A stretch of 64,000 nt of DNA from an uncultured virus (IMG/VR IMGVR_UViG_3300012933_000135) (taxonomy: Duplodnaviria > Heunggongvirae > Uroviricota > Caudoviricetes). Made by a program: the position numbers and the translations under genes. The notes under the pieces were generated by a model, which was not told the origin of the DNA, searched no databases, and saw nothing but the letters and a program-made list of their open reading frames with translations. This document shows positions 25,944-44,549 of this stretch, piece by piece. How positions within the stretch are numbered: position 1 is the stretch's first letter; each line of letters begins with the position of its first letter. The stretch is from IMG/VR virus record IMGVR_UViG_3300012933_000135. One strand, 5' to 3'.

Positions 25944-26228
25944 ATGAACGATATTCTAATTAACACACTTAAATGGATCAAAGAAGATTATGCTAGTCAC
26001 CCTTTTCGCTTTTGTATCGAGTTGCTTGCTTGGGCTATTAGTATTGGCTGTAGCATTACCATGGCGCTCACCGTACCGCAACCGCCTCTTCTTATGCTTT
26101 ACCCTGTCTGGATTACTGGTTGTGCTCTCTACGCTTGGGCTGCTTGGACTCGTAAAAGCTTCGGCATGATAGCCAACTATCTATTGCTGGTAACCATTGA
26201 CTGTATTGGACTCTTAAGGATGCTATGA
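25944..26228 (+). CDS. Small multi-pass membrane protein
   Basis: Three hydrophobic helices. Confidence 0.6.
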   Translation: MNDILINTLKWIKEDYASHPFRFCIELLAWAISIGCSITMALTVPQPPLLMLYPVWITGCALYAWAAWTRKSFGMIANYLLLVTIDCIGLLRML

Positions 26229-26797
26229 AACTCTTCGATAACGTATTGCCCGCGGGCTATTTTAACACCATTGAGCAGACCATAATGGGTCCTGCTTTCC
26301 CCTGGAACATCAACACCAATACAGTTAACCTGGGCTCAACCCTGGGCTATTGGGATGATCACACAGAAGACAGCCAGCAGTTCACGCATGTGTTTGCACA
26401 CGATGGACAGGTTGTTAGCGACTATTACCCCCTGATCCAACCCATGCTGTACTTCCTGGAACTGCACACGGGCAAGGAATGGAACGTGCTCAGAGTCAAG
26501 GCCAACATGCTGATCAGAGAGCCGGGCTACCCAGAGGGCAAGTACAACACCCAGCATATGGATGTGTTCAAACCCTTGGGCGCACCATCTAGAGCTCGTA
26601 GCTTCCTATTCTATTTGAATGACAGCGACGGTGTTACCCAGTTCTTTGATAGTGATCACCAGCAGACACATCACATGGTGCCCAAAGCCAATTCGGGCAT
26701 GTTGTTTGACAGTACCACATGGCATGCCAGCACACCCCCGAGAACGGGCCCAAATCGGGTAGTTCTTAACTTCATTTTGGAACCCAGACTAGGTTGA
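26225..26797 (+). CDS. 2OG-Fe(II) oxygenase
   Basis: HMD...FYLNDSDG.T...FDS..WH...R.VLNF. Confidence 0.8.
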   Translation: MKLFDNVLPAGYFNTIEQTIMGPAFPWNINTNTVNLGSTLGYWDDHTEDSQQFTHVFAHDGQVVSDYYPLIQPMLYFLELHTGKEWNVLRVKANMLIREPGYPEGKYNTQHMDVFKPLGAPSRARSFLFYLNDSDGVTQFFDSDHQQTHHMVPKANSGMLFDSTTWHASTPPRTGPNRVVLNFILEPRLG

Positions 26798-28696: not shown

Positions 28697-28769
28697 TCCA
28701 CTTTCTTTGTGTAGGGTTATTGACAGAGTCGGCTTTTGGCACTATAATTAGGCTATACAAAAGGAACTC

Positions 28770-28919
28770 ATGTACGCAATCATCAATCGCACTACCAAAA
28801 TCACTCTATTCTTTGCCCGTTTCGACCAAGCATTCGAAGCTTGCCGTGCTTACAATGTCTTGCCCGGGCATAGTGTCTATATCGTAGATTTCGCAGAATC
28901 TAAAATCGAACAGCTATAA
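28770..28919 (+). CDS. Small early protein (49 aa)
   Basis: Hand-translated MYAIINRTT...; AAGGA SD and own promoter. Confidence 0.55.
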   Translation: MYAIINRTTKITLFFARFDQAFEACRAYNVLPGHSVYIVDFAESKIEQL

Positions 28920-28973
28920 CCCTAGGGGGTTTAGGGTTATTGACACAATCGCCGTTCTAGCATATAATACACT

Positions 28974-29291
28974 ATGACGAAAAGAACTGCTCGCAAAGAC
29001 TCAAACTACATCATCTATGCGGCTACCCATAACGGGCAGTCGTATATAGGATTGACTCGCAAGGGATCAACTACAGTGAAGAAGGCTGTACTTGAGCGCT
29101 GGCGTAAGCATATCAGTAGAGCAAAGCATGAAGATCGCGACTGGGAGATCTATCGCTATATCAAAGCAGGCAACTGGACCAACTGGGAGCATGAGGTCAT
29201 CACTGTGATTCGCGGTCGTGCTGAAGCTTATGCATACGAACGAGCAATTGTCAAGGCTATCCAACCAGAGCTGAATGACCAGTACATGTGA
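28974..29291 (+). CDS. GIY-YIG nuclease domain protein
   Basis: IIY......SYIGLT...R...H...E...I....P.LN. Confidence 0.75.
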   Translation: MTKRTARKDSNYIIYAATHNGQSYIGLTRKGSTTVKKAVLERWRKHISRAKHEDRDWEIYRYIKAGNWTNWEHEVITVIRGRAEAYAYERAIVKAIQPELNDQYM

Positions 29292-29362
29292 ACGGGTATT
29301 GACAGGGTGGCAAGATCATGTTATAATTATGGCATACACTAACAAACACTGGAGCGAAAACC

Positions 29363-30070
29363 TTGTTTAAATTACTCAGCACTGCAAATCCTAAGATCCA
29401 AAAGGGCGCAAAATTGGGCTATCTTAGCTTCATCTTGCACCTTAGCCCTGCAGATGTAGCGGGTGCAGGTAATACATGTCCTAAGGCCACTGCAGGTTGC
29501 AAGGCAGCATGTCTGAACACTGCGGGTCGTGGCGGTATGTTCACTCCAGAGCAGGGCACCAACACTATTCAAGAAGCTCGTAAGCGCAAGACACGCCAGT
29601 TCTTTGCAGACAAGCAGGCGTTCGCAGAGGTGTTGAAAGCAGACATTCGCAAGGCTATCAAGTTCGCAGCCAAGCAGGGTTTGACTCCAGTGTTCCGTTT
29701 GAATGGCACTAGTGACATTGCATGGGAAAAGTATGGTATCATTGAAGAGTTCCCTACTGTACAGTTCTATGACTACACGAAGATCTTGGGTCGTAAGGTT
29801 GCACACCTGCCTAACTATCACCTGACATTCAGCGCCGCAGACGGCAACGATGCAGATGTGGCTAAGGCCATTGCACAAGGCATGAACGTGACTGTAGTGT
29901 TTGACAAGATCCCAGAGACTTACATGGGCAAGGCAGTGTTTGATGCAGATGACACAGACCTGCGTTTCCTGGATCCAAAAGGTGCAGTTCTTGGGTTGAA
30001 AGCCAAGGGTCGTGCTCGTAAGGACACCACAGGCTTTGTCAAACGTACAATTATCTTAAAGGCAGTTTAA
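29363..30070 (+). CDS. Gp88-like protein (Cys-motif, radical-SAM-like)
   Basis: NTCPKATAGCKAACL, FRLNGTSD, FYDYTK, D..DLRFLD. Confidence 0.7.
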   Translation: MFKLLSTANPKIQKGAKLGYLSFILHLSPADVAGAGNTCPKATAGCKAACLNTAGRGGMFTPEQGTNTIQEARKRKTRQFFADKQAFAEVLKADIRKAIKFAAKQGLTPVFRLNGTSDIAWEKYGIIEEFPTVQFYDYTKILGRKVAHLPNYHLTFSAADGNDADVAKAIAQGMNVTVVFDKIPETYMGKAVFDADDTDLRFLDPKGAVLGLKAKGRARKDTTGFVKRTIILKAV

Positions 30071-30071
30071 T

Positions 30072-30308
30072 ATGACAAGAACAGAAATAGACAATGCACT
30101 ACAGTGGGCGGGCACGGTGTGTCTGCTCAGCATGTATGTGCTCATGAGCTTCTTTCCACACCTGCATCCGTGGAACATTGTGGCGGGTGTACTAGGTGGC
30201 TCCTGCTATCTATTGTGGACTGTACGAGTGCGGAATCGCCCGCAGATGATTGTCAACGGTGTTGCAATAGCCATTGGGCTAGCAGGGTTATTCCGAGCAT
30301 GGAGTTGA
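30072..30308 (+). CDS. Small membrane protein
   Basis: Hydrophobic helices. Confidence 0.55.
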   Translation: MTRTEIDNALQWAGTVCLLSMYVLMSFFPHLHPWNIVAGVLGGSCYLLWTVRVRNRPQMIVNGVAIAIGLAGLFRAWS

Positions 30309-30365
30309 CTGGTTGAGCTTTTGGCGTTATAATTAAGGCTACAGTAAACAACAAGGAGCGAACCT

Positions 30366-30614
30366 ATGTTAGATGTAAGCAAGATTGCCCGGGTGTATTC
30401 GGGCAAGATCGGATGCATGTGCGGGTGCAAGGGTAAGTATACCTACAATGCGGGAGTGCCGCACGAGGGTTGGCAGGGCAAGGAGAATGTGCGAACTGTC
30501 CGCATGTTCACTCGTCAGCTAATGTCTAACCCTGCTGTCAAGTACGAAGACAACTTCATGTACGTGGAGGAGAACGGTCGTATCAAAGTGGCATTCTTCA
30601 AGGAGTCTGCATGA
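30366..30614 (+). CDS. Early hypothetical protein (CxCGCxG)
   Basis: GGAGCGAA SD, own promoter. Confidence 0.65.
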   Translation: MLDVSKIARVYSGKIGCMCGCKGKYTYNAGVPHEGWQGKENVRTVRMFTRQLMSNPAVKYEDNFMYVEENGRIKVAFFKESA

Positions 30615-30847
30615 TCACCGCAAAGAACATTCGTTACATGATCGACATCCCACTAGAGCATCTCAAGGCCATTGCTGTTAACAGTCGAATTGATATCAAA
30701 ATCGCAGGCGCAGAGTTCTTGGGCATGACCAACGGTGGTGAGTTCTGCTACAGGATCACTCACTGGGTGCAAGGCGGAACTGACAGCGAAAAGATGTTTC
30801 TCAAGTATAACCCAGCGGCAGATAGAGTTCTAGCCACTTTGCAGTAA
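30611..30847 (+). CDS. Early hypothetical protein
   Basis: AAGGAG SD. Confidence 0.6.
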   Translation: MITAKNIRYMIDIPLEHLKAIAVNSRIDIKIAGAEFLGMTNGGEFCYRITHWVQGGTDSEKMFLKYNPAADRVLATLQ

Positions 30848-30906
30848 CGGTTGACACATTAGCCAATCCATTGTATAATTAACACTTGAACACACAGGAG
30901 CGACAA

Positions 30907-31167
30907 ATGAAAGCATTAAACCAGATGGTAAGCGATTATAATTCTTGGGATGTCAAGTTCTTCAAAGCCAAGCCAATTGATCTTACTAAGGCTGCAGACC
31001 GCCAACGCCTTGCAGACATGATTGATTGTAAGCTATCCCCCGAGAACTTGACCTGTGACGGTGAGCTGAGTCGTACAGAAGTCAACCGTCGCTATCGTGC
31101 ATTGACTGCGGCTGCTCGTGATCTGCAGAAGCTGGATCCCACTGTCAAGTTCTACGAGTTCGCTTAA
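30907..31167 (+). CDS. Early hypothetical protein (LSPENLTCDGE motif)
   Basis: GGAGCGA SD, own promoter. Confidence 0.65.
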   Translation: MKALNQMVSDYNSWDVKFFKAKPIDLTKAADRQRLADMIDCKLSPENLTCDGELSRTEVNRRYRALTAAARDLQKLDPTVKFYEFA

Positions 31168-31248
31168 CCCTAGCGAGTGCAGGGTTATTGACAACCCTGC
31201 ACTTTGACGCTATAATTAACACTTAGACAAACACACTAGGAGCGATAC

Positions 31249-31518
31249 ATGGATATCAAAGCGATCAACACCGCGATCATCACAGGTTCTTTCACAGCCG
31301 CAGAGCTTAACTCAATCGGCGATGCAGTCAAGTTCGCCCGCAGTCGTGTAGCCAGTGCCACAATTGGTCTGCTCCGCAAAGGTGCCCAAGTCCGCTTCAA
31401 AGCCCGCGGTGGTGCAATGCTGACAGGTACAGTGCGAAGCAAGGGCACAAAGAACGTGGTGGTTGACACATCACAGGGCGTGTGGCGTGTGAGTGCCACC
31501 CTGCTTGAAGTCATTTAA
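31249..31518 (+). CDS. Early hypothetical protein (SH3-like C-terminus)
   Basis: GGAGCGA SD, own promoter. Confidence 0.65.
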   Translation: MDIKAINTAIITGSFTAAELNSIGDAVKFARSRVASATIGLLRKGAQVRFKARGGAMLTGTVRSKGTKNVVVDTSQGVWRVSATLLEVI

Positions 31519-31594
31519 CCCTACTGTGGGCAGGGTTATTGACAGCCCTGCCCAAACCTGTTATAATAATGACATAGCAACAAAGGAGCGATGC

Positions 31595-31957
31595 ATGTCT
31601 AAAGTAATTTTTAACACTAGCGGTGACGGTTACTGGTCTAACGTAAAGAAGGCAGTGGAGATCACTGACATGCGTTTGGGCTATGTCAATGAAGACGCAG
31701 ACTGGGGCGAGCTCTGTGTGTTCTTTAACACAGACACATGGGATGTTGAGAAGGACGGCTTGATCTACACAGACAAGCAATTTAAGATTGACCTGATGGC
31801 ATTTATTGAACAGCACGGCCTAGTGGTCGACCTGTGTTATAGTGAGCAAGGCATGCAGGGCACAGACTATGTCAGCTTAGACGTAGGCAAAGACTTTTTG
31901 GCCAGCTGGGGCGCTAAGTTTGGTGTTGACAGCATTAGCCCAATGTGCTATAATTAA
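31595..31957 (+). CDS. Early hypothetical protein
   Basis: Start MSKVIF after GGAGCGA; YSEQGMQG motif. Confidence 0.65.
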   Translation: MSKVIFNTSGDGYWSNVKKAVEITDMRLGYVNEDADWGELCVFFNTDTWDVEKDGLIYTDKQFKIDLMAFIEQHGLVVDLCYSEQGMQGTDYVSLDVGKDFLASWGAKFGVDSISPMCYN

Positions 31958-31981
31958 CACATAGACAAACAAGGAGCCCAA

Positions 31982-32167
31982 ATGCTAACAGCAAAAAACA
32001 AGAGCAAGCTACTTAACGATGCAGTAGACCTGTTGGAGCAGGTAGACATGCTACAGCAAAAGGCCCTAGGCGCTTGTGATGTAGCAGAGGACAACCACAA
32101 TCGCATCCAGGACTTGATTGATGACTTGATTGCAGACATTGTGGAGTTTGACAGCCAAGTGGCTTGA
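31982..32167 (+). CDS. Early hypothetical acidic helical protein
   Basis: AAGGAG SD, own promoter. Confidence 0.6.
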   Translation: MLTAKNKSKLLNDAVDLLEQVDMLQQKALGACDVAEDNHNRIQDLIDDLIADIVEFDSQVA

Positions 32168-32208
32168 TGCTATAATTAACACATAAACAAACATTAGGAG
32201 CGAACCAA

Positions 32209-32451
32209 ATGCAAGTTAAAGACCTCATTGAACTGTTAGCAGGCTACGACCCAGAAGCAGAAGTCCACTTCACTTACAATTATGGCGACCACTGGCGTAC
32301 ACAGGTTGCGCCTAAGATCCGCGATGTTGATGTAGGCTATGTCAAGTTCAGCGACTACCACCGCATGGACAAGGTATGGGAACCTGACTACGATGAGGAT
32401 GACGAGACCGATGCAGACAAACTGCAAGAAGTTGTATTGATTGGAGGTTAA
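32209..32451 (+). CDS. Early hypothetical protein (M.V.DLIE.L type)
   Basis: GGAGCGAA SD. Confidence 0.65.
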   Translation: MQVKDLIELLAGYDPEAEVHFTYNYGDHWRTQVAPKIRDVDVGYVKFSDYHRMDKVWEPDYDEDDETDADKLQEVVLIGG

Positions 32452-32452
32452 G

Positions 32453-32731
32453 ATGGGTGCAGAATACTTTGAAACACGAGCTAAGGGCAACACTCCAGAG
32501 GAAGCCTACGAGCACTGCCAATCAATCTCAGCTTGGGATCCAGATGGCTACACGGGCAACATCAACGTCAAGGACGGCTTTGTCATGGTGTTCCAAGAAG
32601 GTGATGAGACTGTAGAGCAGGCACTTGAACGACTGGGCGAGACAGACCTTGTCAACTCTAAGTGGGGGCCAGCGGCCTGTATGTGGCTAGGCGAGGACAA
32701 CTACATCTTCTTTGGCTGGGCGTCAAGCTAA
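32453..32731 (+). CDS. Early hypothetical protein (GYTG...KWGPA...FFGWASS)
   Basis: GGAGG SD. Confidence 0.65.
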   Translation: MGAEYFETRAKGNTPEEAYEHCQSISAWDPDGYTGNINVKDGFVMVFQEGDETVEQALERLGETDLVNSKWGPAACMWLGEDNYIFFGWASS

Positions 32732-32815
32732 AGACCCAGTGGTGTGCAGGGTTATTGACAGCCCTGCATTTTGGCGTTATAATTAACACATACACAAACA
32801 CACTAGGAGTTGAAA

Positions 32816-33232
32816 ATGGGAACACGCAGCACTATCGCACTTGAGTTCGCAGACGGTTCAGTTAGCCAAGTCTACTGTCACTGGGATGGCTACTTGTCAA
32901 ACAACGGCGAGATCCTGCAGAACAACTACCGCAACCCATTTACCCTGCGTGACTTGTTGGACTTGGGCGACTTCTCTAGCTTGCGTGATACTGTTGAGGA
33001 AACACAAGAAGGCGCTTACCGTGAGCGTGGCGATGACTGCTCAGCTCGTCGCTACATGGATGTCACTGAATACTTTGCTGAATGCCAGCAAGAGGAATAT
33101 GACTACATCTTGCGTCAAGTAGAGGGCGAAGCAGTTTGGTTCGTTCGTTGCTGGGCAACTGACGGCCTGTGGGTTACATTGGGCGAGGCTAAAGGCCTTG
33201 AGGAACGCATGAACGAAAGCGAGTGCTACTAA
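32816..33232 (+). CDS. Early hypothetical protein (MGTRS...YCHWDGY type)
   Basis: AGGAG SD, own promoter. Confidence 0.65.
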   Translation: MGTRSTIALEFADGSVSQVYCHWDGYLSNNGEILQNNYRNPFTLRDLLDLGDFSSLRDTVEETQEGAYRERGDDCSARRYMDVTEYFAECQQEEYDYILRQVEGEAVWFVRCWATDGLWVTLGEAKGLEERMNESECY

Positions 33233-33459
33233 TGACTGGCTTCCAAACTAAACGGTCTATGGCAGACGACAAGCTCTTCGAACGTGACTTGGCTATTGGT
33301 TACTTGACTGATAGCGATTACAAGTATATAATGGAAACAGAAGGCGGACTGGAACTGCTTAACAGCTACCTCCAGTTTGGTTTTAAGGGCTACGAGAACT
33401 TCACAGACGAAGAACTCAAGGCAGAGATCAAAGAACGTGAATGGATGGAAACACAATGA
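33232..33459 (+). CDS. Early hypothetical protein
   Basis: TAATG coupling. Confidence 0.55.
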   Translation: MTGFQTKRSMADDKLFERDLAIGYLTDSDYKYIMETEGGLELLNSYLQFGFKGYENFTDEELKAEIKEREWMETQ

Positions 33460-33644
33460 GCAAGATGAAAGACCTGACTTGGGACGTTGAGTCTCTGTTT
33501 ATCGATGGGATGAGTCCGCGACAGATCGCCGCTGAACTTGAGTGCCCGCTAGGTGTTGTTGTAGGCATCCTAGAAGGCTTTGGAGTTGATACTGCCGATG
33601 TGGCAGAAAAGCCACAGACTGAACAAGACTACTACGGCGCTTGA
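33456..33644 (+). CDS. Small helix-turn-helix-like protein
   Basis: GMSPRQIAAELECP. Confidence 0.55.
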   Translation: MSKMKDLTWDVESLFIDGMSPRQIAAELECPLGVVVGILEGFGVDTADVAEKPQTEQDYYGA

Positions 33645-33679
33645 GTTGACGCCTCTTGCTTTTGAGCATATAATACACT

Positions 33680-33832
33680 ATGACGAAACAAAGCAAGAGG
33701 GTTAAAATGAAGCTGAAGAAGCACAGAGAACACTATGTTCTATTCTGCGCTAACACTCCTTTCAAACCAAAGGTTGTTGAGAGCAAGAAGTCTTACACAC
33801 GCAAACAGAAGCACAAAGGGAGAGGCGAATGA
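33680..33832 (+). CDS. Small basic protein resembling ArfA (alternative ribosome-rescue factor A)
   Basis: Hand-translated 50 aa: ...LFCANTPFKPKVVESKKSYTRKQKHKGRGE; leaderless from the promoter at 33646. Confidence 0.55.
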   Translation: MTKQSKRVKMKLKKHREHYVLFCANTPFKPKVVESKKSYTRKQKHKGRGE

Positions 33833-34080
33833 AAGGTTTGATCACAAACGATTGGGACAGGGACAACCTGAACTTCCTTATCAACGCCACACCCGATGTG
33901 ATTGCTGAATGGGACGCACAGGCCGACGAGGATGATCGTGTCTATGCCCAAGAGCTGCTGGATGCCTATGCAGAAGAACTGCGACTGCAGGCACAAGACT
34001 TGCTAGTCGAAGCCAAACTGGCACTGATGTTCATATACCCTGATGCGAAAAGGGTTATTGACAGCGTTGCGAAATCGTAG
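33829..34080 (+). CDS. Early hypothetical acidic protein
   Basis: GGGAG SD. Confidence 0.6.
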   Translation: MKGLITNDWDRDNLNFLINATPDVIAEWDAQADEDDRVYAQELLDAYAEELRLQAQDLLVEAKLALMFIYPDAKRVIDSVAKS

Positions 34081-34239
34081 TATAATTTAAACAACAACAA
34101 AGGGAACAGCAATGAAAACCAACCGCGAAAAGAACACACAGCACGATAAGGATCAGATCCTTAAAGTGCGCCCTAAACAGGGTTCATATGAGTTCAAAGC
34201 GCTCGAGGATGTGATCCGTCAATGGGTCACAGGCAGTAA

Positions 34240-34509
34240 GTGAGCGTCTTAGAGCTGTCGGGTCGCCCGTACACTGTCTTTGATCCGGCTAACAAAGCCC
34301 ACCGAAGCTACTATCATGCCTTCGTTGAGACAGGATCATGGGGTAAGTGTCCGTTCCGATTTGTGGTTCCTGAGGATCACGGCGATTTGATTACAATGAT
34401 CCAACGTAGTTTGGTCAAGCACTATGTCCAAACTGAGTTCAAACTTGTTGTGAAAAAACAACAGAAAAAGGTTAGCCAAAAGGCTACAAAACGGTTGACA
34501 ATCAAGTAG
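34240..34509 (+). CDS. Early hypothetical protein
   Basis: FDPANK.HR...WG.CP.RF. Confidence 0.6.
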   Translation: MSVLELSGRPYTVFDPANKAHRSYYHAFVETGSWGKCPFRFVVPEDHGDLITMIQRSLVKHYVQTEFKLVVKKQQKKVSQKATKRLTIK

Positions 34510-34580
34510 ATTGAACATACAATAAGAACATGGGCAAGGCGCTCATACTTTTTAAACACACACACTAAGGAAACTTAAAA

Positions 34581-34949
34581 ATGGCTACAGATAAGACTTT
34601 TAACATTGTTGGCGTATCTAAACTCAACGGCGAGTACAAAGTTCGCTTTGCTACAGACATCATGCGTATTAAGGTGCTCGCCAAGCACGGTCATGAAGAC
34701 ATCCGACTTGCTGAGCTGGCTACTGCCGTTACCAAGTATGAGGCGGTCAAGCAATTGCAGTCATTGGATGAGTTCCAAGACGTTGCTGCTCAAGATGCGA
34801 TTGCAGAGTACTTGGATGAGAAAGCTCCTAAGACTCCTAAGGTTAAAGCTGCACCTAAAGCCAAAGCAGTTAAAGCACCAGCTAAGACCAAAGCGGTCAA
34901 GGCACTCACTCCAGCGGTAGTTGCTGAAGACGAAGAAGCGCCGTTCTAA
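34581..34949 (+). CDS. Hypothetical protein with Lys/Ala/Pro-rich (histone-like) tail
   Basis: KVRFA...K.GH.DI; KAPKTPKVKAAPKAK tail. Confidence 0.65.
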   Translation: MATDKTFNIVGVSKLNGEYKVRFATDIMRIKVLAKHGHEDIRLAELATAVTKYEAVKQLQSLDEFQDVAAQDAIAEYLDEKAPKTPKVKAAPKAKAVKAPAKTKAVKALTPAVVAEDEEAPF

Positions 34950-34986
34950 TCACAGGGGGTGCAACGCCCCCTAACTTAAATACAAC

Positions 34987-35175
34987 ATGAACTGGGAACT
35001 ATACGAAGTCTGGTCCGTCGACGAAGATGGCCACGAAGACTTGATTGATACAACAAAAAGCCTCAAAGAAGCTAGGGAAATTGCTCAAGCTACGATCACA
35101 GAATACTATGCCGAGTGCATTATATACCGTGAAGACGAAGAGGGCGAGTTAGTAGAGATAGAACGAGTTCAATAG
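34987..35175 (+). CDS. Small highly acidic protein
   Basis: ORF track; D/E-rich. Confidence 0.55.
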   Translation: MNWELYEVWSVDEDGHEDLIDTTKSLKEAREIAQATITEYYAECIIYREDEEGELVEIERVQ

Positions 35176-35249
35176 CACCAATAGCTTAATGGTAAAGCAG
35201 CCGACTCATAATCGGTCGAGTCCTAGTTCAATTCTAGGTTGGTGCACCA
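35175..35249 (+). tRNA. tRNA with CAT anticodon (Ile2-type more likely than Met)
   Basis: GCACCAA/TTGGTGC acceptor stem plus ACCA; anticodon arm CCGA-CTCATAA-TCGG; TTCAA T-loop; anticodon arm resembles bacterial tRNA-Ile2. Confidence 0.9.
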
Positions 35250-35253
35250 ATTA

Positions 35254-35328
35254 CTGGCGTTCGTTCAACGGATAGGACATCATTCTTCTAAAGTGATTAT
35301 AGGGGTTCGATTCCCTTACGCCGGACCA
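35254..35328 (+). tRNA. tRNA-Arg(TCT)
   Basis: CTGGCGT/ACGCCGG acceptor stem plus ACCA; loop CTTCTAA; GTTCGATTC. Confidence 0.88.
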
Positions 35329-35333
35329 AATGC

Positions 35334-35370
35334 AAAGGGATGTAGTACTTAGGTGTTACATCCCTTTTTG
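35334..35370 (+). terminator. Intrinsic terminator after the tRNAs
   Basis: AAAGGGATGTA...TACATCCCTTTTT. Confidence 0.75.
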
Positions 35371-35578
35371 CTGATCTACGCAATCAAGCCCTAAAACGCT
35401 CTTTTGAGGCGACGTAAGTCATTGATTTATATAGGCCTCAGAACCGCTAATTTCGCTAGATTCTGTATCGTAGGCGCTGTTACGCAAAACTCCTAAAAGA
35501 TCGCTGTAAACGATTGGTTGACAGGTTAGCCCAAAAGCGTTATAATTAACACATACAAACAAACAGCACTAGGAGTAG

Positions 35579-35872
35579 ATGATGGAACTGATTACAGCAT
35601 ACTTGGCAGGCATCGTAGTAGTCAACGGTTTGTGGGCCATGCGTGTGCCACATGAAGATGTTCGTATGGTGTTCCTCCTTGCCCTGTTTTGGCCCGTGAC
35701 TATCCTAGCTGTCTTGTTTATGGTAGCGATCACAGCTACAGGTTGGGACTTCGATGTTGATACCAACGCTGGCAAGATGTATAACCTCCGCAAGCCTACA
35801 AACCCTGAAGTCAAAGGCTTTGGCCTGTGCTTGTTGGGCGTCGAGTTCCAACTCTACAAGAAGGTGAAGTAA
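35579..35872 (+). CDS. Early membrane protein
   Basis: AGGAG SD, TM segments, LFWP. Confidence 0.6.
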   Translation: MMELITAYLAGIVVVNGLWAMRVPHEDVRMVFLLALFWPVTILAVLFMVAITATGWDFDVDTNAGKMYNLRKPTNPEVKGFGLCLLGVEFQLYKKVK

Positions 35873-35929
35873 TTGGTTGACTGATTAGCCAAAATGCGCT
35901 ATAATTAACGCATACACAGTAAGGAGCAC

Positions 35930-36127
35930 ATGATGGACAAGAGCGTAGATATCCCCGGAGCACCAGAGTTCTATGGCAATCCTATTAGCCGTGCAGAGAT
36001 GGTTGCCAAGGCAGGCTTGGTACTTGATCGTAAGACAGGCCAAGCATACGATCCTAAGATCAAGTTTGACGAGTTGATGGGCACCGCAGAGATCCAAGCT
36101 ATGCTCAAGCGTTTGGCGGTGCGTTAA
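35930..36127 (+). CDS. Early hypothetical protein
   Basis: AAGGAG SD, own promoter. Confidence 0.6.
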   Translation: MMDKSVDIPGAPEFYGNPISRAEMVAKAGLVLDRKTGQAYDPKIKFDELMGTAEIQAMLKRLAVR

Positions 36128-36302
36128 TGAAATACACGCTGATCACAAGTAAAGGGAAAGTATTAACTTTTTACCTTAAGGCAGTTGCAGAAACATACCA
36201 AAAAGCCTACGGTGGACAGTTGATTACATCAGACATTTTGGTTGACGAGGTTGCCCAATCCTGCTATAATTAACACATACAGAAACACAGCAGGAGCAGT
36301 AA

Positions 36303-36506
36303 ATGAAAGTCGACAGCATGTTTTACATTGCACTAGGCACAGTGGTTGATTTGATTGAAAAGGCTGATAGCTACAAAGCGTTCGTAGAGTTAGCAGAGTC
36401 AACAGATGAAGCCAATCGTTATGCTCGCCGCGCACTCAAGTACAAGGCTAAGGCCATCGTTGGCTTTGACCGTGAGATGGATCGCTTGGTAAAGGAATAC
36501 AAATGA
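36303..36506 (+). CDS. Early hypothetical protein
   Basis: AGGAG SD, own promoter. Confidence 0.6.
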   Translation: MKVDSMFYIALGTVVDLIEKADSYKAFVELAESTDEANRYARRALKYKAKAIVGFDREMDRLVKEYK

Positions 36507-36739
36507 AACTCGCAACCGCAATCAAACGCCTAGAAGCAGACCGCAAAGCCTACGCTGAGTGGTTGAAGGAAGATGGAGTCTACGGGTTCTACAAGGGCAG
36601 GGTTGATAGCCTTAGCCAGTGGATAGAGTTCCGCACTGGTGCTCCTGATGTCGAGTCCTGGGAGAATACAGCGATGAAGACTGTGCGTGATTACAGCAAG
36701 GAGTTAGCCAAACAATTGGTTGACGGCCTAGCCAAATGA
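36503..36739 (+). CDS. Early hypothetical protein
   Basis: AAGGA SD. Confidence 0.55.
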   Translation: MKLATAIKRLEADRKAYAEWLKEDGVYGFYKGRVDSLSQWIEFRTGAPDVESWENTAMKTVRDYSKELAKQLVDGLAK

Positions 36740-36774
36740 CAGTATAATTAACACATAGCAACAAAGGAACACAC

Positions 36775-37167
36775 ATGCAAATCGCACTCACTATCAAAGA
36801 CAAGTTGATCAAGTCAGCAATCAGCAACGCACTGGACAACGAAGTCTATGAGTACTGGGATTCAGCATCGATCAAGGCTGCTAAGTTGCCCGCAATCAGC
36901 ACAGTGACCAAAGAGATCTTTAACGATCCTAAGTTCCAAGCACAGCTGGTCAAAGAGATCCAGGCCACAGCTGAGTCAGCGGTTGAGGACTACATCTACG
37001 AAATGATGGACGAGATGCAGATCCCACAGATCCAAAAACTCTATGTCCAAGTGCGTGAAGCAGATGAACAGCGTGGCATTGCTGATGCTGCCAAGCAGGA
37101 AGCTGAGGAAGTAGAGCGCATGATCAAGATGTTGGCCAAGGCAGGATATAAGATCGAAAAGGCTTGA
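36775..37167 (+). CDS. Early hypothetical protein
   Basis: AAGGA SD, own promoter. Confidence 0.6.
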   Translation: MQIALTIKDKLIKSAISNALDNEVYEYWDSASIKAAKLPAISTVTKEIFNDPKFQAQLVKEIQATAESAVEDYIYEMMDEMQIPQIQKLYVQVREADEQRGIADAAKQEAEEVERMIKMLAKAGYKIEKA

Positions 37168-37228
37168 CAGCCTAGCCAAAAGGCGCTATAATTAACACAT
37201 ACAAACAAACAGCACTAGGAGCGAAACT

Positions 37229-37399
37229 ATGCACAAACCATCAAACATCATCATCACAGTAGTAGGCTTCTTCCTCGTCTACGGCGCGGTAGGCACACTG
37301 GATGCAGATCCTACTGCATCAGTTGTTCAAATGTTTGGCATTGCCTGTGCTGGACTAGCCCTTATGTTCGCAGGCACCAACGCACTCACTAACCAGTAA
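37229..37399 (+). CDS. Small early membrane protein (56 aa)
   Basis: Hand-translated MHKPSNIIITVVGFFLVYGAVG...; GGAGCGAA SD. Confidence 0.55.
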   Translation: MHKPSNIIITVVGFFLVYGAVGTLDADPTASVVQMFGIACAGLALMFAGTNALTNQ

Positions 37400-37408
37400 G
37401 GAATCACT

Positions 37409-37630
37409 ATGAAATACATCGCATCAGTCCTTGGTCTTATCGCAACCCTGTTCTTTGCAGTATGCGCTGGCACACTCTTCGGCGGCATTGCCAGCTGGGT
37501 AGTGAACTTGCCCTTCCCCCAAGTTGGACAAACACTTAACACTCTAACTGGCCTGCATCTTGATGCATTTGATCAAGGCGCTGTCCTGGGCTTCTTGGGC
37601 GGCTTTATCCGTTCAAATAGTTCTAAGTAA
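37409..37630 (+). CDS. Small early membrane protein
   Basis: AAGGA SD; hydrophobic. Confidence 0.55.
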   Translation: MKYIASVLGLIATLFFAVCAGTLFGGIASWVVNLPFPQVGQTLNTLTGLHLDAFDQGAVLGFLGGFIRSNSSK

Positions 37631-37695
37631 CGGTTGACAGCTAGCCCAAAAGCTAGTATAATCAACACATACAAACAAACATTGGAGCGAAAACA

Positions 37696-38070
37696 ATGGC
37701 ACACATTACAGCAGCAGACGTAGCAGCAATCCGCAAGGAACTCAAAGAACAACTGCCCAAGTTCAAGTTCAGCGTTCGTAAAGAGTCGGGCAGCTTGGCA
37801 GTGGCTGTGACCATCAAGCAAGGTCCCGCAGCATTCGAAGGCAAGACCAACGCACAGGTCAACGAGTACTGGATCGACAGTCACTGGACCAACGCAGAAG
37901 ACGCTATGGTCTTGAAGAAGATTTCAGAGATCATGCACAATGCTCCAGGTCGTGCTGATGTGCTCCGCAAGTACTTCGATCACAGCGATGCGATGACTGA
38001 CTACTTCCACACTGCCTTCTACACACACTTGAGCATTGGCAGCTGGGACAAGCCCTACCAAAAGGTATAA
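37696..38070 (+). CDS. LPD29-like protein
   Basis: IRKELK...P..KFSVR...D.SD.MTDYFH motif. Confidence 0.6.
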   Translation: MAHITAADVAAIRKELKEQLPKFKFSVRKESGSLAVAVTIKQGPAAFEGKTNAQVNEYWIDSHWTNAEDAMVLKKISEIMHNAPGRADVLRKYFDHSDAMTDYFHTAFYTHLSIGSWDKPYQKV

Positions 38071-38145
38071 TGTATACCAAACTGCCTTGACACACAGGGC
38101 AGTTGAGTATATAATAAACACTTACACAAACAAGCGAGCGAGTAC

Positions 38146-39039
38146 ATGAACAAACCCCGAGTGATGACCCTAGACAACATGCCCAAAGCTAACAAGAAGC
38201 CAGGCAAGGCCACTACAGCAAGCCTGGAGCAAGAGCCAGTTAAGAAGATCCTTACAGAGACTGACGAAGAGATTATGGCTCGCTTGGCCATGCGCTTTGA
38301 CATTCTAGAAGACATGACCCGTGCTGTGAAGAAGGGCGATGTGCGTAGTATGATCGTCACAGGCCCTCCAGGTGTGGGCAAGAGCTTTGGTGTTGAGAAG
38401 GTACTCAGCAAGCACGATGTGTTCGCTGATGTAGCCAATGACAGTAAGCTGAAGAAGTACGAAGTAGTCAAGGGTGCAATGAGTGCGATTGGCTTGTACA
38501 AGAAGCTCTACGAGTTTGCAGACAAGAAGTGCATCCTAGTGTTCGATGACTGTGATAGTGTCTTGCTTGATGACCTTAGCCTTAACATCCTAAAGGCTGC
38601 GCTAGACTCGGGTAAGAAGCGTATGATCCATTGGAACACTGATAGCCGTAGCCTTAGCCAAGAGGGTGTGCCACAGAGCTTTGAGTTCCAGGGCGGTGCT
38701 ATCTTCATTACCAACATCAAGTTCGATCACGTGCGCTCTAAGAAGCTGCGCGATCACCTAGAAGCATTAGAGTCACGCTGCCACTACTTGGACTTGACTA
38801 TTGATACAGAGCGCGAGAAGCTCCTACGTATCAAGCAGGTAGTGCGTGATGCGGACATGCTGGCAGCATATGATATGCCCGATGAAGCTAAGACAGAAGT
38901 CGTACAGTTCATTATGGATAACTCAAAGCGTATGCGTGAGCTCAGCTTGCGTATGGTACTCAAGGTAGCAGACATTAGAGTCAGCATGCCAGAGCGCTGG
39001 AAGAGTGTAGTAGAGGTAACATGTATGCGCAATGCATAA
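38146..39039 (+). CDS. AAA+ family ATPase
   Basis: Walker A GPPGVGKS, Walker B LVFDDCD, FITN, AL.SR. Confidence 0.85.
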   Translation: MNKPRVMTLDNMPKANKKPGKATTASLEQEPVKKILTETDEEIMARLAMRFDILEDMTRAVKKGDVRSMIVTGPPGVGKSFGVEKVLSKHDVFADVANDSKLKKYEVVKGAMSAIGLYKKLYEFADKKCILVFDDCDSVLLDDLSLNILKAALDSGKKRMIHWNTDSRSLSQEGVPQSFEFQGGAIFITNIKFDHVRSKKLRDHLEALESRCHYLDLTIDTEREKLLRIKQVVRDADMLAAYDMPDEAKTEVVQFIMDNSKRMRELSLRMVLKVADIRVSMPERWKSVVEVTCMRNA

Positions 39040-39220
39040 GCCCTAGGGCTGTGCTGCGCTGTAGAGTGTAGTAAGGTAAGCAGCCGCAGAGCTGTAGCCC
39101 TACAGTGACTAGCCAACGATTCGCTCCCGGTAACTAGTCCCTAGGTTAGAAGGATGTCTAACCAACCATAAGTCCTAACCGTAAATCCGATTCGCTCCCG
39201 GTGGTTAGGACTTTTTTTTG
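39040..39220 (+). ncRNA. Candidate structured sRNA / 3'UTR-derived RNA with two identical anti-SD-like loops, ending in an intrinsic terminator
   Basis: CGATTCGCTCCCGGT at 39117-39131 and 39188-39202, enclosed by stems GACTAG/CTAGTC and AAGTCCTAACC/GGTTAGGACTT; T-run at 39212-39219. Confidence 0.65.
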
Positions 39221-39452
39221 ACTCGAGGCATCGTCGAGGTGACCAGGGGCATATGGTGGGGTCGGGGCATATAAATTATAATTGCACAATGCAAAACGCT
39301 AACACAATCAAATTTTTATCACTGTTTTAAAAAGGTCCATAGGTGCAGAATCACCAGGGTGAAGGCAAAAGTACTTCTCTATAAATTTTTGCGCGGCAAT
39401 TTTTTAAGGTACACAGGACCCATTTCGGGCTCCCCAATATGCTGTGGGGTTT

Positions 39453-40058
39453 TTACTGTGTGTTAAGGTTGAAGTAAAAGTTCCCCGCAACGCTAATACG
39501 TATGTCATCGCTGCTATAGAATGGGTTCACTGTGTGCTGCATCGTGCTAGGGAATAAACAAAGTCCGCCTTCCCAATCTTCATACGTGGGCAAATTCTGA
39601 GTTCTAATCTGTCCCAATGCGTCTGTATACAGTAGCGTAAACTGTCCTGCATAGTTGATATTTTCAGGAACGTAAGGACGTGCAGCGCACTCAGATGCTA
39701 ACGTGTAGGGCAGTTTTAACCAGATTACGAAACTCATAACTCCAGTGTGATTGTGCGTTGGGCTAAACTCGTGCTTGCTCATATAGTTTACCCATAGTTC
39801 ACTTAGCGTTAGGTTGCGCAAGTCATTAATAACTCTCAGCGTGTTTGGATAGTTATAAGCGTTGTTGTAGTCAACTATCTGTCTGTTTACTAAGAGCTCA
39901 ACGTGTGCTTTGGAAGCTGTCAACTCGCACTTATGATTAACTAACGGTGTATCTATTGTTAGCTCAAGTTGCTTTTGTTTGACTTCTGCCCATAAGGGCG
40001 CTAGCTCATCTTTAGTTAGTCTATGGAGCCAGTAGCCCGTGTTGGAAAAATTGTGCAT
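39453..40058 (-). CDS. Putative 2OG-Fe(II) oxygenase (TIGR02466-like)
   Basis: WVN...P.HNH.G..SFV.W...LFPS...H.V.PF...RISVAGN. Confidence 0.8.
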   Translation of the reverse strand: MHNFSNTGYWLHRLTKDELAPLWAEVKQKQLELTIDTPLVNHKCELTASKAHVELLVNRQIVDYNNAYNYPNTLRVINDLRNLTLSELWVNYMSKHEFSPTHNHTGVMSFVIWLKLPYTLASECAARPYVPENINYAGQFTLLYTDALGQIRTQNLPTYEDWEGGLCLFPSTMQHTVNPFYSSDDIRISVAGNFYFNLNTQ

Positions 40059-43592: not shown

Positions 43593-44549
43593 TTATACTT
43601 TAATATCAATATGTTTGACAGGTCCCCATTCGCGCCAGACTCTATGTTTAGTATGGTATGCTACTGCACCGATACTACTGCTAGCATCACCTGGGTTAGG
43701 CAATGACCAACGATGTTTGAACATCGGCTCGACTATGTTCTTATTGGCCGCACTGTTCATTGCACACCCGCCCATATAGACAATGCAATCGGAACCTGTC
43801 AGCTCTCTTGCTGTCTTCATTATCTTATATACTTGTTCTTCGAATACCTGTTGCACTGCGGCTGCTAGGTCGCACTGCTCTTGTAGATTAAGCAACTCGT
43901 TATTGTCCCAGTGCAGGACACCTCTGTGGAAGTTGGTGTTTAAATTCAATACCTTGCCGGCTTCAAAATATTTTCTAACATGGTGAAGGAATCGGCCTGG
44001 CGTTCCGTGCTCTGCCATTTGTTGTAACAAGTGCTCATCTCTAATAGGCGTCAGTCCAACAAATTGTGTGAAGGCACTATAGAACAAGCCTAGGCTATGT
44101 GGATAACTTCTGCTCCACACTTTCTTCATTTCACCGTGAACACAATTCCAAATTGAAGCACATTCAAACTCGCCTATTGCATCGAGTACCACAACAGCAC
44201 AGTGATTAAAAGGACTGGTATAGTAGCCTGCGGCTGCATGGCTAGCATGATGCGGCGTATAAGTGATTGGCGCATATCCTAATCCCCATTGTTTAAGTTT
44301 ACGACTTGGTAAGTTGTCTAATCTAAATGCAGTGTCAAATTGTCCTGCACGAATTTGTCTTGCCTTCTTCATCCACGGATTTTCGTACCAATAGATCCTG
44401 TCAGGTGGTCCTTGGTGATCTAGATTTAATTTAAACTGTTCAGGTGTTAAATTATCACTAGTTGATACAAAGCCATCGATATACTCGCCATCCCTAAACA
44501 CAGACAGGCTAGACCCGTGATTAAGAGCGTTTATTCCCCACTGTATCAT
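43593..44549 (-). CDS. Carbamoyltransferase (NodU/CmcH family) N-terminal Kae1-like domain only
   Basis: HHASHAAAGYYTS, DAIGE, SLGLFYSAFT, GGCAMN, GDASS.IGA; 318 aa. Confidence 0.8.
   Translation of the reverse strand: MIQWGINALNHGSSLSVFRDGEYIDGFVSTSDNLTPEQFKLNLDHQGPPDRIYWYENPWMKKARQIRAGQFDTAFRLDNLPSRKLKQWGLGYAPITYTPHHASHAAAGYYTSPFNHCAVVVLDAIGEFECASIWNCVHGEMKKVWSRSYPHSLGLFYSAFTQFVGLTPIRDEHLLQQMAEHGTPGRFLHHVRKYFEAGKVLNLNTNFHRGVLHWDNNELLNLQEQCDLAAAVQQVFEEQVYKIMKTARELTGSDCIVYMGGCAMNSAANKNIVEPMFKHRWSLPNPGDASSSIGAVAYHTKHRVWREWGPVKHIDIKV

Follow-up and report, generated by a model that had tools for sequence, protein, structure and literature searches.

The present work concerns an RNA element encoded at positions 39040-39220 (+ strand) of a stretch of 64,000 nucleotides from an uncultured virus of the Caudoviricetes (IMG/VR record IMGVR_UViG_3300012933_000135; the whole stretch is called the window below). 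The element, of about 180 nucleotides, is the 3' untranslated region (UTR) of a gene for an AAA-ATPase-like protein, and it presents the same loop sequence in two hairpins. This loop is complementary to an extended Shine-Dalgarno (SD) motif, GGAGCGA, which forms a tag at the ribosome-binding sites (RBSs) of several early genes. The analysis indicates that the RNA probably pairs through its loops with the tagged early RBSs, covers their SD sequence and lowers the translation of the early genes. The predicted pairing is well supported by comparison with relatives, in which loop and RBS have changed together. An earlier interpretation, made from the letters of the window alone (the sequence-only reading), had proposed an RNA with anti-SD loops matching early RBSs, and the comparative data support this proposal.

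The 15-mer CGATTCGCTCCCGGT was found on the + strand at 39117-39131 and, 71 bases further on, at 39188-39202, exactly where the sequence-only reading had placed it. These are the sole matches in the window on either strand, even when up to three mismatches are allowed. By our estimate, it would not be unusual for a 15-mer to be repeated exactly by chance within 64 kb; the meaning of this repeat lies in its spacing, the position of both copies in loops and their conservation in relatives. The 181 nucleotides that follow the stop codon fold with a computed energy of -62 kcal/mol (z = -3.27), and none of 200 shuffled sequences was as stable. As had been proposed, they form consecutive hairpins that end in a terminator with a T8 tail (Table 1). 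Hairpin C has the features of an intrinsic terminator, a G+C-rich stem followed by a U-run, and scores -15.6 kcal/mol for the 50 nucleotides before the T-run; its stem, previously given as 11 base pairs, has 12 in the computed structure. The loop of this hairpin is unusually large (20 nucleotides), and a simple terminator scan overlooked it.

Hairpins A and C share the nine-base apical loop AUUCGCUCC (39119-39127 and 39190-39198), each closed by a short inner C-G helix, which in hairpin C is CCG/CGG. This loop, the predicted anti-RBS, is the Watson-Crick complement of GGAGCGAA(U). The loop bases of both hairpins have unpaired probabilities of 0.90-1.00, and opening them would cost 0.03-0.11 kcal/mol, which bears out the exposure that had been claimed for them. 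The position of the element is that of a 3' UTR-derived RNA, on the same strand as the gene, after its stop codon and ending at the terminator of the messenger RNA (mRNA) itself, and relatives are alike in this respect. A scan for promoters found no promoter-like site at 38116-39040.

The motif GGAGCGA occurs 11 times in the window, counting both strands, as against 3.47 copies expected, and none of 100 shuffled sequences reached 11. Nine copies are on the + strand; the other two are the loops read on the opposite strand. Eight of the + strand copies stand 3-5 bases before a start codon (seven ATG, and TTG at 29363), and five of these eight read GGAGCGAA. They are the RBSs of the very early genes that the sequence-only reading had listed, and the three further early leaders carrying GGAGC were likewise found as described there. 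The loop AUUCGCUCC is predicted to form 7-8 base pairs with each of the eight tagged leaders, with duplex energies of -13.2 to -16.0 kcal/mol versus -3.1 to -10.3 kcal/mol for untagged early leaders. The leader of the AAA-ATPase-like gene itself carries GAGCGAG (38136-38142), for which a duplex of -12.5 kcal/mol with the loop is predicted.

The tagged sites belong to a repeated promoter-leader cassette, in which each of the 21 early promoters precedes a near-identical A/C-rich, G-poor leader (TAACACATACAAACAAACA...) placed before small genes. Only two strong + strand terminators were found in the early region, the one at 35334-35369 and the loop-bearing one, which indicates that this region consists of two transcription blocks, the promoters of the second lying at 35518-38115. 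Six of the eight tagged RBSs are in the first block, where the loops could act on them in trans only. A further possibility, that every early transcript continues as far as the loop terminator, is ruled out by the strong terminator at 35334-35369. The genes for a transfer RNA (tRNA)-Met (CAT) and a tRNA-Arg (TCT) lie inside the early region (35175-35369, + strand), and their terminator was overlooked by a simple scan.

Table 1. Positions of the RNA element, of the tagged RBSs and of related features in the window (MFE, minimum free energy; ORF, open reading frame; duplex, predicted pairing energy with the loop)
Feature	Position	Strand	Details
Promoter array, early region	28720-38115	+	21 promoters of sigma-70 type; 14 perfect TTGACA-N17-TATAAT, 7 with 11 of 12
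Tagged RBS GGAGCGAA	29351-29358	+	before TTG 29363 (ORF of 235 amino acids, phrog_1617); duplex -14.8 kcal/mol
Tagged RBS GGAGCGAA	30355-30362	+	before ATG 30366; duplex -14.8 kcal/mol
Tagged RBS GGAGCGA	30897-30903	+	before ATG 30907; duplex -13.2 kcal/mol
Tagged RBS GGAGCGA	31239-31245	+	before ATG 31249; duplex -15.1 kcal/mol
Tagged RBS GGAGCGA	31585-31591	+	before ATG 31595; duplex -14.7 kcal/mol
Tagged RBS GGAGCGAA	32197-32204	+	before ATG 32209; duplex -14.1 kcal/mol
Strong intrinsic terminator	35334-35369	+	3' of tRNA-Met and tRNA-Arg genes; splits early region in two blocks
Tagged RBS GGAGCGAA	37218-37225	+	before ATG 37229; shares transcription block with loops; duplex -16.0 kcal/mol
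Tagged RBS GGAGCGAA	37684-37691	+	before ATG 37696; shares transcription block with loops; duplex -13.9 kcal/mol
Last gene of second early block	38146-39039	+	AAA-ATPase-like protein (phrog_1250; T4 nrdC.10-like); stop codon 39037-39039
5' branched hairpin domain of 3' UTR	39044-39102	+	in MFE and centroid structure
Small hairpin within 5' domain	39080-39095	+	GCAGC/GCTGT; counterpart in relatives has loop CACUAAGA
Hairpin A	39107-39139	+	6-base-pair stem GACTAG/CTAGTC (39107-39112 / 39134-39139), 21-nucleotide loop CCAACGATTCGCTCCCGGTAA
Hairpin B, spacer	39144-39163	+	GGTTAGA/TCTAACC; sequence not conserved in relatives
Hairpin C, intrinsic terminator	39170-39220	+	12-base-pair stem AAGTCCTAACCG/TGGTTAGGACTT (39170-39181 / 39202-39213), T8 (39212-39219)

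Relatives of the window were collected by two kinds of search. An exact search for CGATTCGCTCCCGGT in IMG/VR gave at least 120 loci, many of which may be chance matches, and protein-based searches gave 62 and 80 loci. Six loci among the matches of the exact search that were listed have two copies of the 15-mer, 61-80 bases apart, directly 3' of the orthologous gene and with differing stems. Every member of the clade to which the window belongs (55 rows, support 98) has the element. Altogether, 55 distinct elements with 104 loops were found 3' of the orthologous AAA-ATPase-like gene in metagenomic relatives, and in these the UCGCUC core of the loops has a mean unpaired probability of 0.80 (median 0.93) versus 0.38 for the rest of the element. 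By a strict criterion, requiring all eight core bases to be unpaired in the MFE structure, 68 of 102 loops qualified; the unpaired probabilities were used instead. Eleven loops have an unpaired probability below 0.5, and these are mostly first loops, lying where the folded segment was cut on its 5' side.

The stems behave differently from the loops. Among 20 distinct homologues of hairpin A, all seven stem pairs have changed on both sides, and 95% of the cells are paired; the figure is 58.6% in shuffles, not one of the 500 attaining 95%, and 20-36% when the partners are slid. The differing stems and identical loops noted in the sequence-only reading have their counterpart in relatives, where the stems co-vary around a loop core, GAUUCGCUCCC, that is constant and unpaired. 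The terminator stems also differ among relatives, the loop and the T-run being kept. In the 5' domain, the motif AGCAGCC.CUAAGAGCUG recurs, and the small hairpin upstream of hairpin A is found again as CAGCC-ACUAAGA-GCUG, with a conserved loop and, in some relatives, overlapping the stop codon; no pairing partner was found for this loop. Single hairpins with the same 15-mer loop were observed in one further lineage (G003, 353 kb), 3' of a different small early gene encoding a protein of about 100 amino acids. A homologue of this protein (46% identity over 83 amino acids) is encoded in the window at 34581-34949 (+ strand; 34581-34974 with the region behind it), where a plain GGGGG/CCCCC hairpin without the motif comes after the gene.

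The tag, too, is conserved. In the relatives with the same loop (type 1), every GGAG located between a -10-like hexamer and an ATG was collected, without requiring that CGA follow. At the 355 distinct promoter-proximal GGAG sites thus obtained, the next four bases are C in 90%, G in 71%, A in 66% and A in 65% of the cases, and the positions before GGAG are merely A/C-rich. The fragments G001, G002 and G005 have 14, 11 and 11 GGAGCGA-N2-8-ATG sites. All of these share the strand of the loops and are within about 10 kb of them, nearly all upstream; a reversed-pattern control gave 0-2 sites. In the complete type-1 genome G006 (383 kb), 9 of the 17 GGAGCGA sites fall in the 10.5 kb that precede the loops.

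A sister clade (10 rows, support 100) allowed loop and tag to be compared. In its members, hairpins and a terminator again come after the AAA-ATPase-like gene, with the loops UGUGCCCUC(G) or UGCCCUC (type 2). Their early RBSs have changed too, GAGG being followed by G (83%), C (81%), A (77%) and A (77%; n = 48), which makes GAGGGCAA, the complement of the changed loop. Counted in 45 distinct type-1 loci, GGAGCGA occurs 173 times and GAGGGCA 5 times; in 6 distinct type-2 loci, the figures are 0 and 16. The complete genomes agree, with 17 GGAGCGA and 1 GAGGGCA site in G006 versus 1 and 12 in the type-2 genome G021, where 9 of the 12 GAGGGCA sites are beside the loops at 19.84-19.89 kb. Joint variation of loop and RBS in related phages had been set beforehand as a test of the proposed interaction, and this is the outcome it predicted. 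It is hard to see how 2-4 loops and about a dozen RBSs could have changed in concert in each genome without functional coupling by base pairing. Two features of small RNAs (sRNAs) with anti-SD loops are found here, namely an exposed pyrimidine-rich loop complementary to the SD of its targets, and co-evolution of the two, in the form of a single switch. Distant relatives have other pyrimidine loops 3' of the AAA gene: GAUUGCUCC and AAUUCGCUCU in L257 and L261, where the RBS of the gene itself is GGAGCAA, and CUCCUCUCUCCUCUCUCCUCC, with a long CUCC-repeat, in L260 (931-1050). From their sequences, these may be further loop/tag pairs.

Several observations weigh against this interpretation. The switch from type 1 to type 2 took place on one branch of the tree and is one concerted event, not repeated covariation. 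In three loci (L124, L126 and L147), one loop reads GAAUCGCUCCC or GAATCGCTCCC, and the RBSs show no shift towards GGAGCGAT (12 A, 1 T and 4 C, versus 152 A, 10 T, 29 C and 10 G elsewhere), an observation that is neutral since each of these loci retains a canonical loop; in another, L168, the RBSs are mostly GGAGCGC with unchanged loops. The exact search for the 15-mer selects for loop invariance, which the protein-based searches do not. In the window, the complementarity spans 7-8 nucleotides, which is short for an unaided interaction, and the eight tagged sites, all being part of the repeated cassette, are not independent within this single genome. The extension CGAA is presumably unable to pair with the 3' tail of 16S ribosomal RNA (rRNA), an assumption that refers to the general bacterial tail and not to that of the host. 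Finally, the full tag is present on only 8 of the 21 promoter-proximal early leaders. The early regulon proposed in the sequence-only reading is refined in these respects: the full tag covers a minority of the early leaders, and six of the eight that have it are in the other transcription unit.

The loops have a second kind of match, located outside the window. In at least 17 distinct loci among the matches listed, a start codon adjoins ACCGGGAGCGAATCG, which is the full 15-mer in reverse complement. The loci had been sorted automatically into hairpin, RBS and other classes (75, 17, 5 and 12 distinct contexts among the matches listed), a noisy procedure in which several class calls conflict with reading by eye; the strict count for the RBS class is a lower bound. 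A TAAATAC box, which we take to resemble T4 late promoters, precedes ACCGGGAGCGAATCG by a few bases. Two genes recur among the RBS-class loci that were followed, one encoding a CsgF-like secreted protein (Pfam PF10614, curli secretion, E = 6e-12) and the other a small membrane protein (phrog_18771). Both are non-early genes, and neither was found in the window (tblastn, best E 4.9). The CsgF-like gene (L267:1516-1995 and L268 in G006; L316 in G021) stands behind a promoter-like box, TTAATCTA...TAAATAC.

The leaders of both genes are predicted to pair with the loop over 12-15 bases in relatives, that of the CsgF-like gene carrying the longest complement. In G006, an uninterrupted stretch of 12 bases and 2 further ones would pair in the CsgF-like leader, and 12 contiguous bases in the membrane-protein leader. 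Where the loops are of type 1, the CsgF-like leader reads ACCGGGAGCGAA(U/C)CG; in G021, it reads GGAGGGCACG and forms 8 Watson-Crick pairs and one G-U pair with the loop UGUGCCCUC. It thus switches along with the loop type. The gene was not found in five type-2 fragments, which are 9-47% complete, and was found through L316 in the complete G021. These long-match leaders explain why 15 loop bases are conserved rather than 8. Judged by complementarity, the two genes are likely the tightest targets, which suggests a hierarchy of targets among tagged and long-match leaders.

These findings suggested the following mechanism. The 180 bases after the AAA-ATPase-like gene would form the common 3' end of the early transcripts of the second block. 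The tag GGAGCGAA(U) would consist of the SD core GGAG and a private 3' extension, CGAA, lying outside the pairing with 16S rRNA. Either loop could pair with tagged early RBSs, cover the SD from 30S subunits and lower translation, and the tagged RBSs of the other transcription unit would be reached in trans. The acting form may be the 3' UTR itself or a separate RNA species, a stable, decay-resistant 3' fragment of the mRNA. The RNA would have to accumulate during infection, pair in the cell and repress its targets, all of which we infer from the arrangement described above.

We considered the possibility that the RNA does pair, and that its physiological targets are the two long-match genes, the 7-8-nucleotide match to early RBSs having little or no effect and reflecting a shared flavour of SD. 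An early RNA would then gate or delay the translation of later genes, both of which are behind TAAATAC-type boxes. The conservation of the whole 15-mer, beyond the eight bases that match early RBSs, the abutment of its complement on start codons in metagenomic loci, the extent of pairing in G006 and the change of the CsgF-like leader with the loop type are all as expected in this case. Yet, it leaves unexplained both the C-G-A-A that follows GGAG at hundreds of early RBSs and the change of these RBSs to GAGGGCAA in the loop-changed clade, and the window has neither of the two strong-target genes. We consider it unlikely that the action of the RNA is confined to these two genes; action on them and action on early RBSs are not exclusive of each other. 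Pairing might also be positive or protective, if the loops shielded early SDs from an SD-directed endonuclease or from decay, or stored the mRNAs. The comparative data indeed give a potential for pairing and not the direction of its effect, and RegB of T4 reportedly cuts the GGAG of early mRNAs. However, the early leaders are A/C-rich and unstructured, thus leaving nothing to open, and a covered SD normally blocks binding of the 30S subunit, which makes a protective role quite improbable.

Two identical loops about 70 nucleotides apart on different stems also have the classic layout of sites for a dimeric binder, and conservation over 15 nucleotides exceeds the 8-nucleotide match to early RBSs. 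The loops could on this account be operator-like or decoy hairpins to which a dimeric RNA-binding protein, encoded by the phage or by its host, attaches, and their complementarity to RBSs would be incidental. A protein site would provide no reason for complementarity to be kept when both partners change (GAUUCGCUCCC with GGAGCGAA, UGUGCCCUC with GAGGGCAA), and the extra conserved bases are accounted for by the long-match leaders; we find this explanation very improbable. Lastly, the element could be a structured terminator and nothing else, the 15-mer being a by-product of an inverted duplication of the leader cassette, or the minus strand being the functional one, with SD-like GGGAGCGAAUCG loops. 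The tag does sit in a repeated cassette that could be copied in inverted orientation, and a convergent minus-strand gene ends at 39453. This account is hardly credible in view of a loop core that 55 distinct elements have retained through compensatory changes of their stems, of a T-run that is always 3' of the hairpin on the + strand, and of a next gene that is also on the + strand in many relatives.

RNAs that share single features with the element are known. Enterobacterial CpxQ, DapZ and SroC follow a stop codon, end with the intrinsic terminator and U-tail of their mRNA and have an exposed seed. The element resembles them in its position after the stop codon, its common terminator and its exposed loops; unlike what is proposed here, they are not known to target their own operon class through a common tag. 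In lytic phages, the timed shut-off of early genes is known as the work of proteins, namely RegA and RegB of T4 and transcription factors, and in T4 the RegB endonuclease and the RegA repressor act class-wide on the translation-initiation regions of early mRNAs. The proposed reader of an RBS class in the present case is an RNA, whereas RegB and RegA are proteins. RNAIII and RsaE of Staphylococcus are sRNAs with C-rich anti-SD loops. In Actinobacteria, the C-rich apical loops of 6C/B11 pair with G-rich SD regions of several mRNAs, and 6C has two such loops (parts of PMC6486639 and PMC10470900). All of these are host-encoded, stand-alone genes with ordinary SDs as targets, unlike the present RNA, which is a 3' UTR and whose loop would read an SD plus a private four-base extension on the phage's own genes.

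The closest mechanistic parallel is c4, the C-rich-loop sRNAs coming second. This small RNA is encoded by the phage and co-transcribed, and it blocks translation by pairing of its hairpin loops with sequences at an RBS. The c4 RNAs of P1 and P7 differ by matched changes of loop and target, as do the type-1 and type-2 loops and tags. However, the two loops of c4 differ from each other and serve two adjacent sites on one mRNA, on either side of an RBS, and c4 is located upstream of this target in an immunity operon of a temperate phage, whereas the present loops are identical, lie in the 3' UTR/terminator of a lytic jumbo phage and face a tag common to many genes. The arrangement that defines c4, two loops for adjacent sites at one downstream RBS, is accordingly replaced here by identical loops and single sites, mostly in the other transcription unit. 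No match (E ≤10) was obtained with the models for c4 antisense RNA (Rfam RF01695; phages P1 and P7, parts of PMC2864571), for 6C/B11 or for other C-rich-loop sRNAs, and a cmscan of 38500-40000 on both strands (E ≤10) gave no relevant Rfam family, only two unrelated matches at chance level. The open-access main texts that were covered, including parts of PMC10914365, contain no report of this element or of a private-SD/anti-SD RNA pair in lytic phages.

The window encodes a large terminase, helicases, a primase, a UvsX-like recombinase and tail fibres. All its known close relatives are metagenomic contigs, which CheckV describes as fragments of genomes of about 350-380 kb, indicating that the window comes from an uncultured jumbo phage. 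Parts of it occur in public runs with the label freshwater metagenome, at low run shares (≤0.36), and what is said here of its habitat goes no further than this label. A nucleotide search of 50,697 records gave no cultured-phage match to 38900-39500, and the best relatives of the AAA-ATPase-like protein among cultured-phage records are less than 60% identical. In Pseudomonas phage PA5oct, the homologue of its gene is followed by other genes, and there is no counterpart of the element to compare.

Contigs from freshwater metatranscriptomes run without a break from the 3' end of the gene through the element (run X2, 335 nucleotides, 38864-39196), which fits transcription through the element, although this is weak evidence since such contigs show neither strand nor ends and may derive from carried-over DNA. 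Their cover stops at about 39232, one DNA run reaching 39335, and they give no evidence of termination.

Directly past the terminator, a conserved non-coding block (39221-39455, + strand) includes blocks common to 15 aligned relatives. It comprises a G-rich GGGGTCGGGGCATATAAAT, then ATAGGTGCAGAATCACCAGG, AGTACTTCTCTATAAATTTTTGCGCGGCAATTTTTT and CAGGACCCATTTCGGGC, and a terminator-like hairpin with T5 at 39432-39454. It had no Rfam match, and may represent another small RNA or a promoter region specific to the phage. The genes at 39453-40058 (- strand), 43593-44549 (- strand) and 26225-26797 (+ strand) encode a 2OG-Fe(II) oxygenase, a Nol-like carbamoyltransferase and an endonuclease V-like protein, which together hint at functions in DNA base modification or repair.

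Complementarity of loop and tag in two sister clades with different sequences is unusually direct evidence for a case built on sequence only. Tentatively, and with slightly more doubt than conviction, we propose that this group of phages marks a temporal class of mRNAs with a private SD extension, an address illegible to the ribosome, and that the duplicated anti-tag RNA acts as a class-wide timer, shutting off the tagged genes and delaying the two long-match genes, tag and anti-tag drifting together. If this is true, it would mean that uncultured freshwater jumbo phages exert RNA-based, class-wide control of translation, and it would offer an explanation for the odd, extended SD motifs kept by many phages. 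Types 1 and 2 would then represent two tag/anti-tag sets that are naturally orthogonal, and the drift of tag and anti-tag between lineages could insulate co-infecting relatives from each other.

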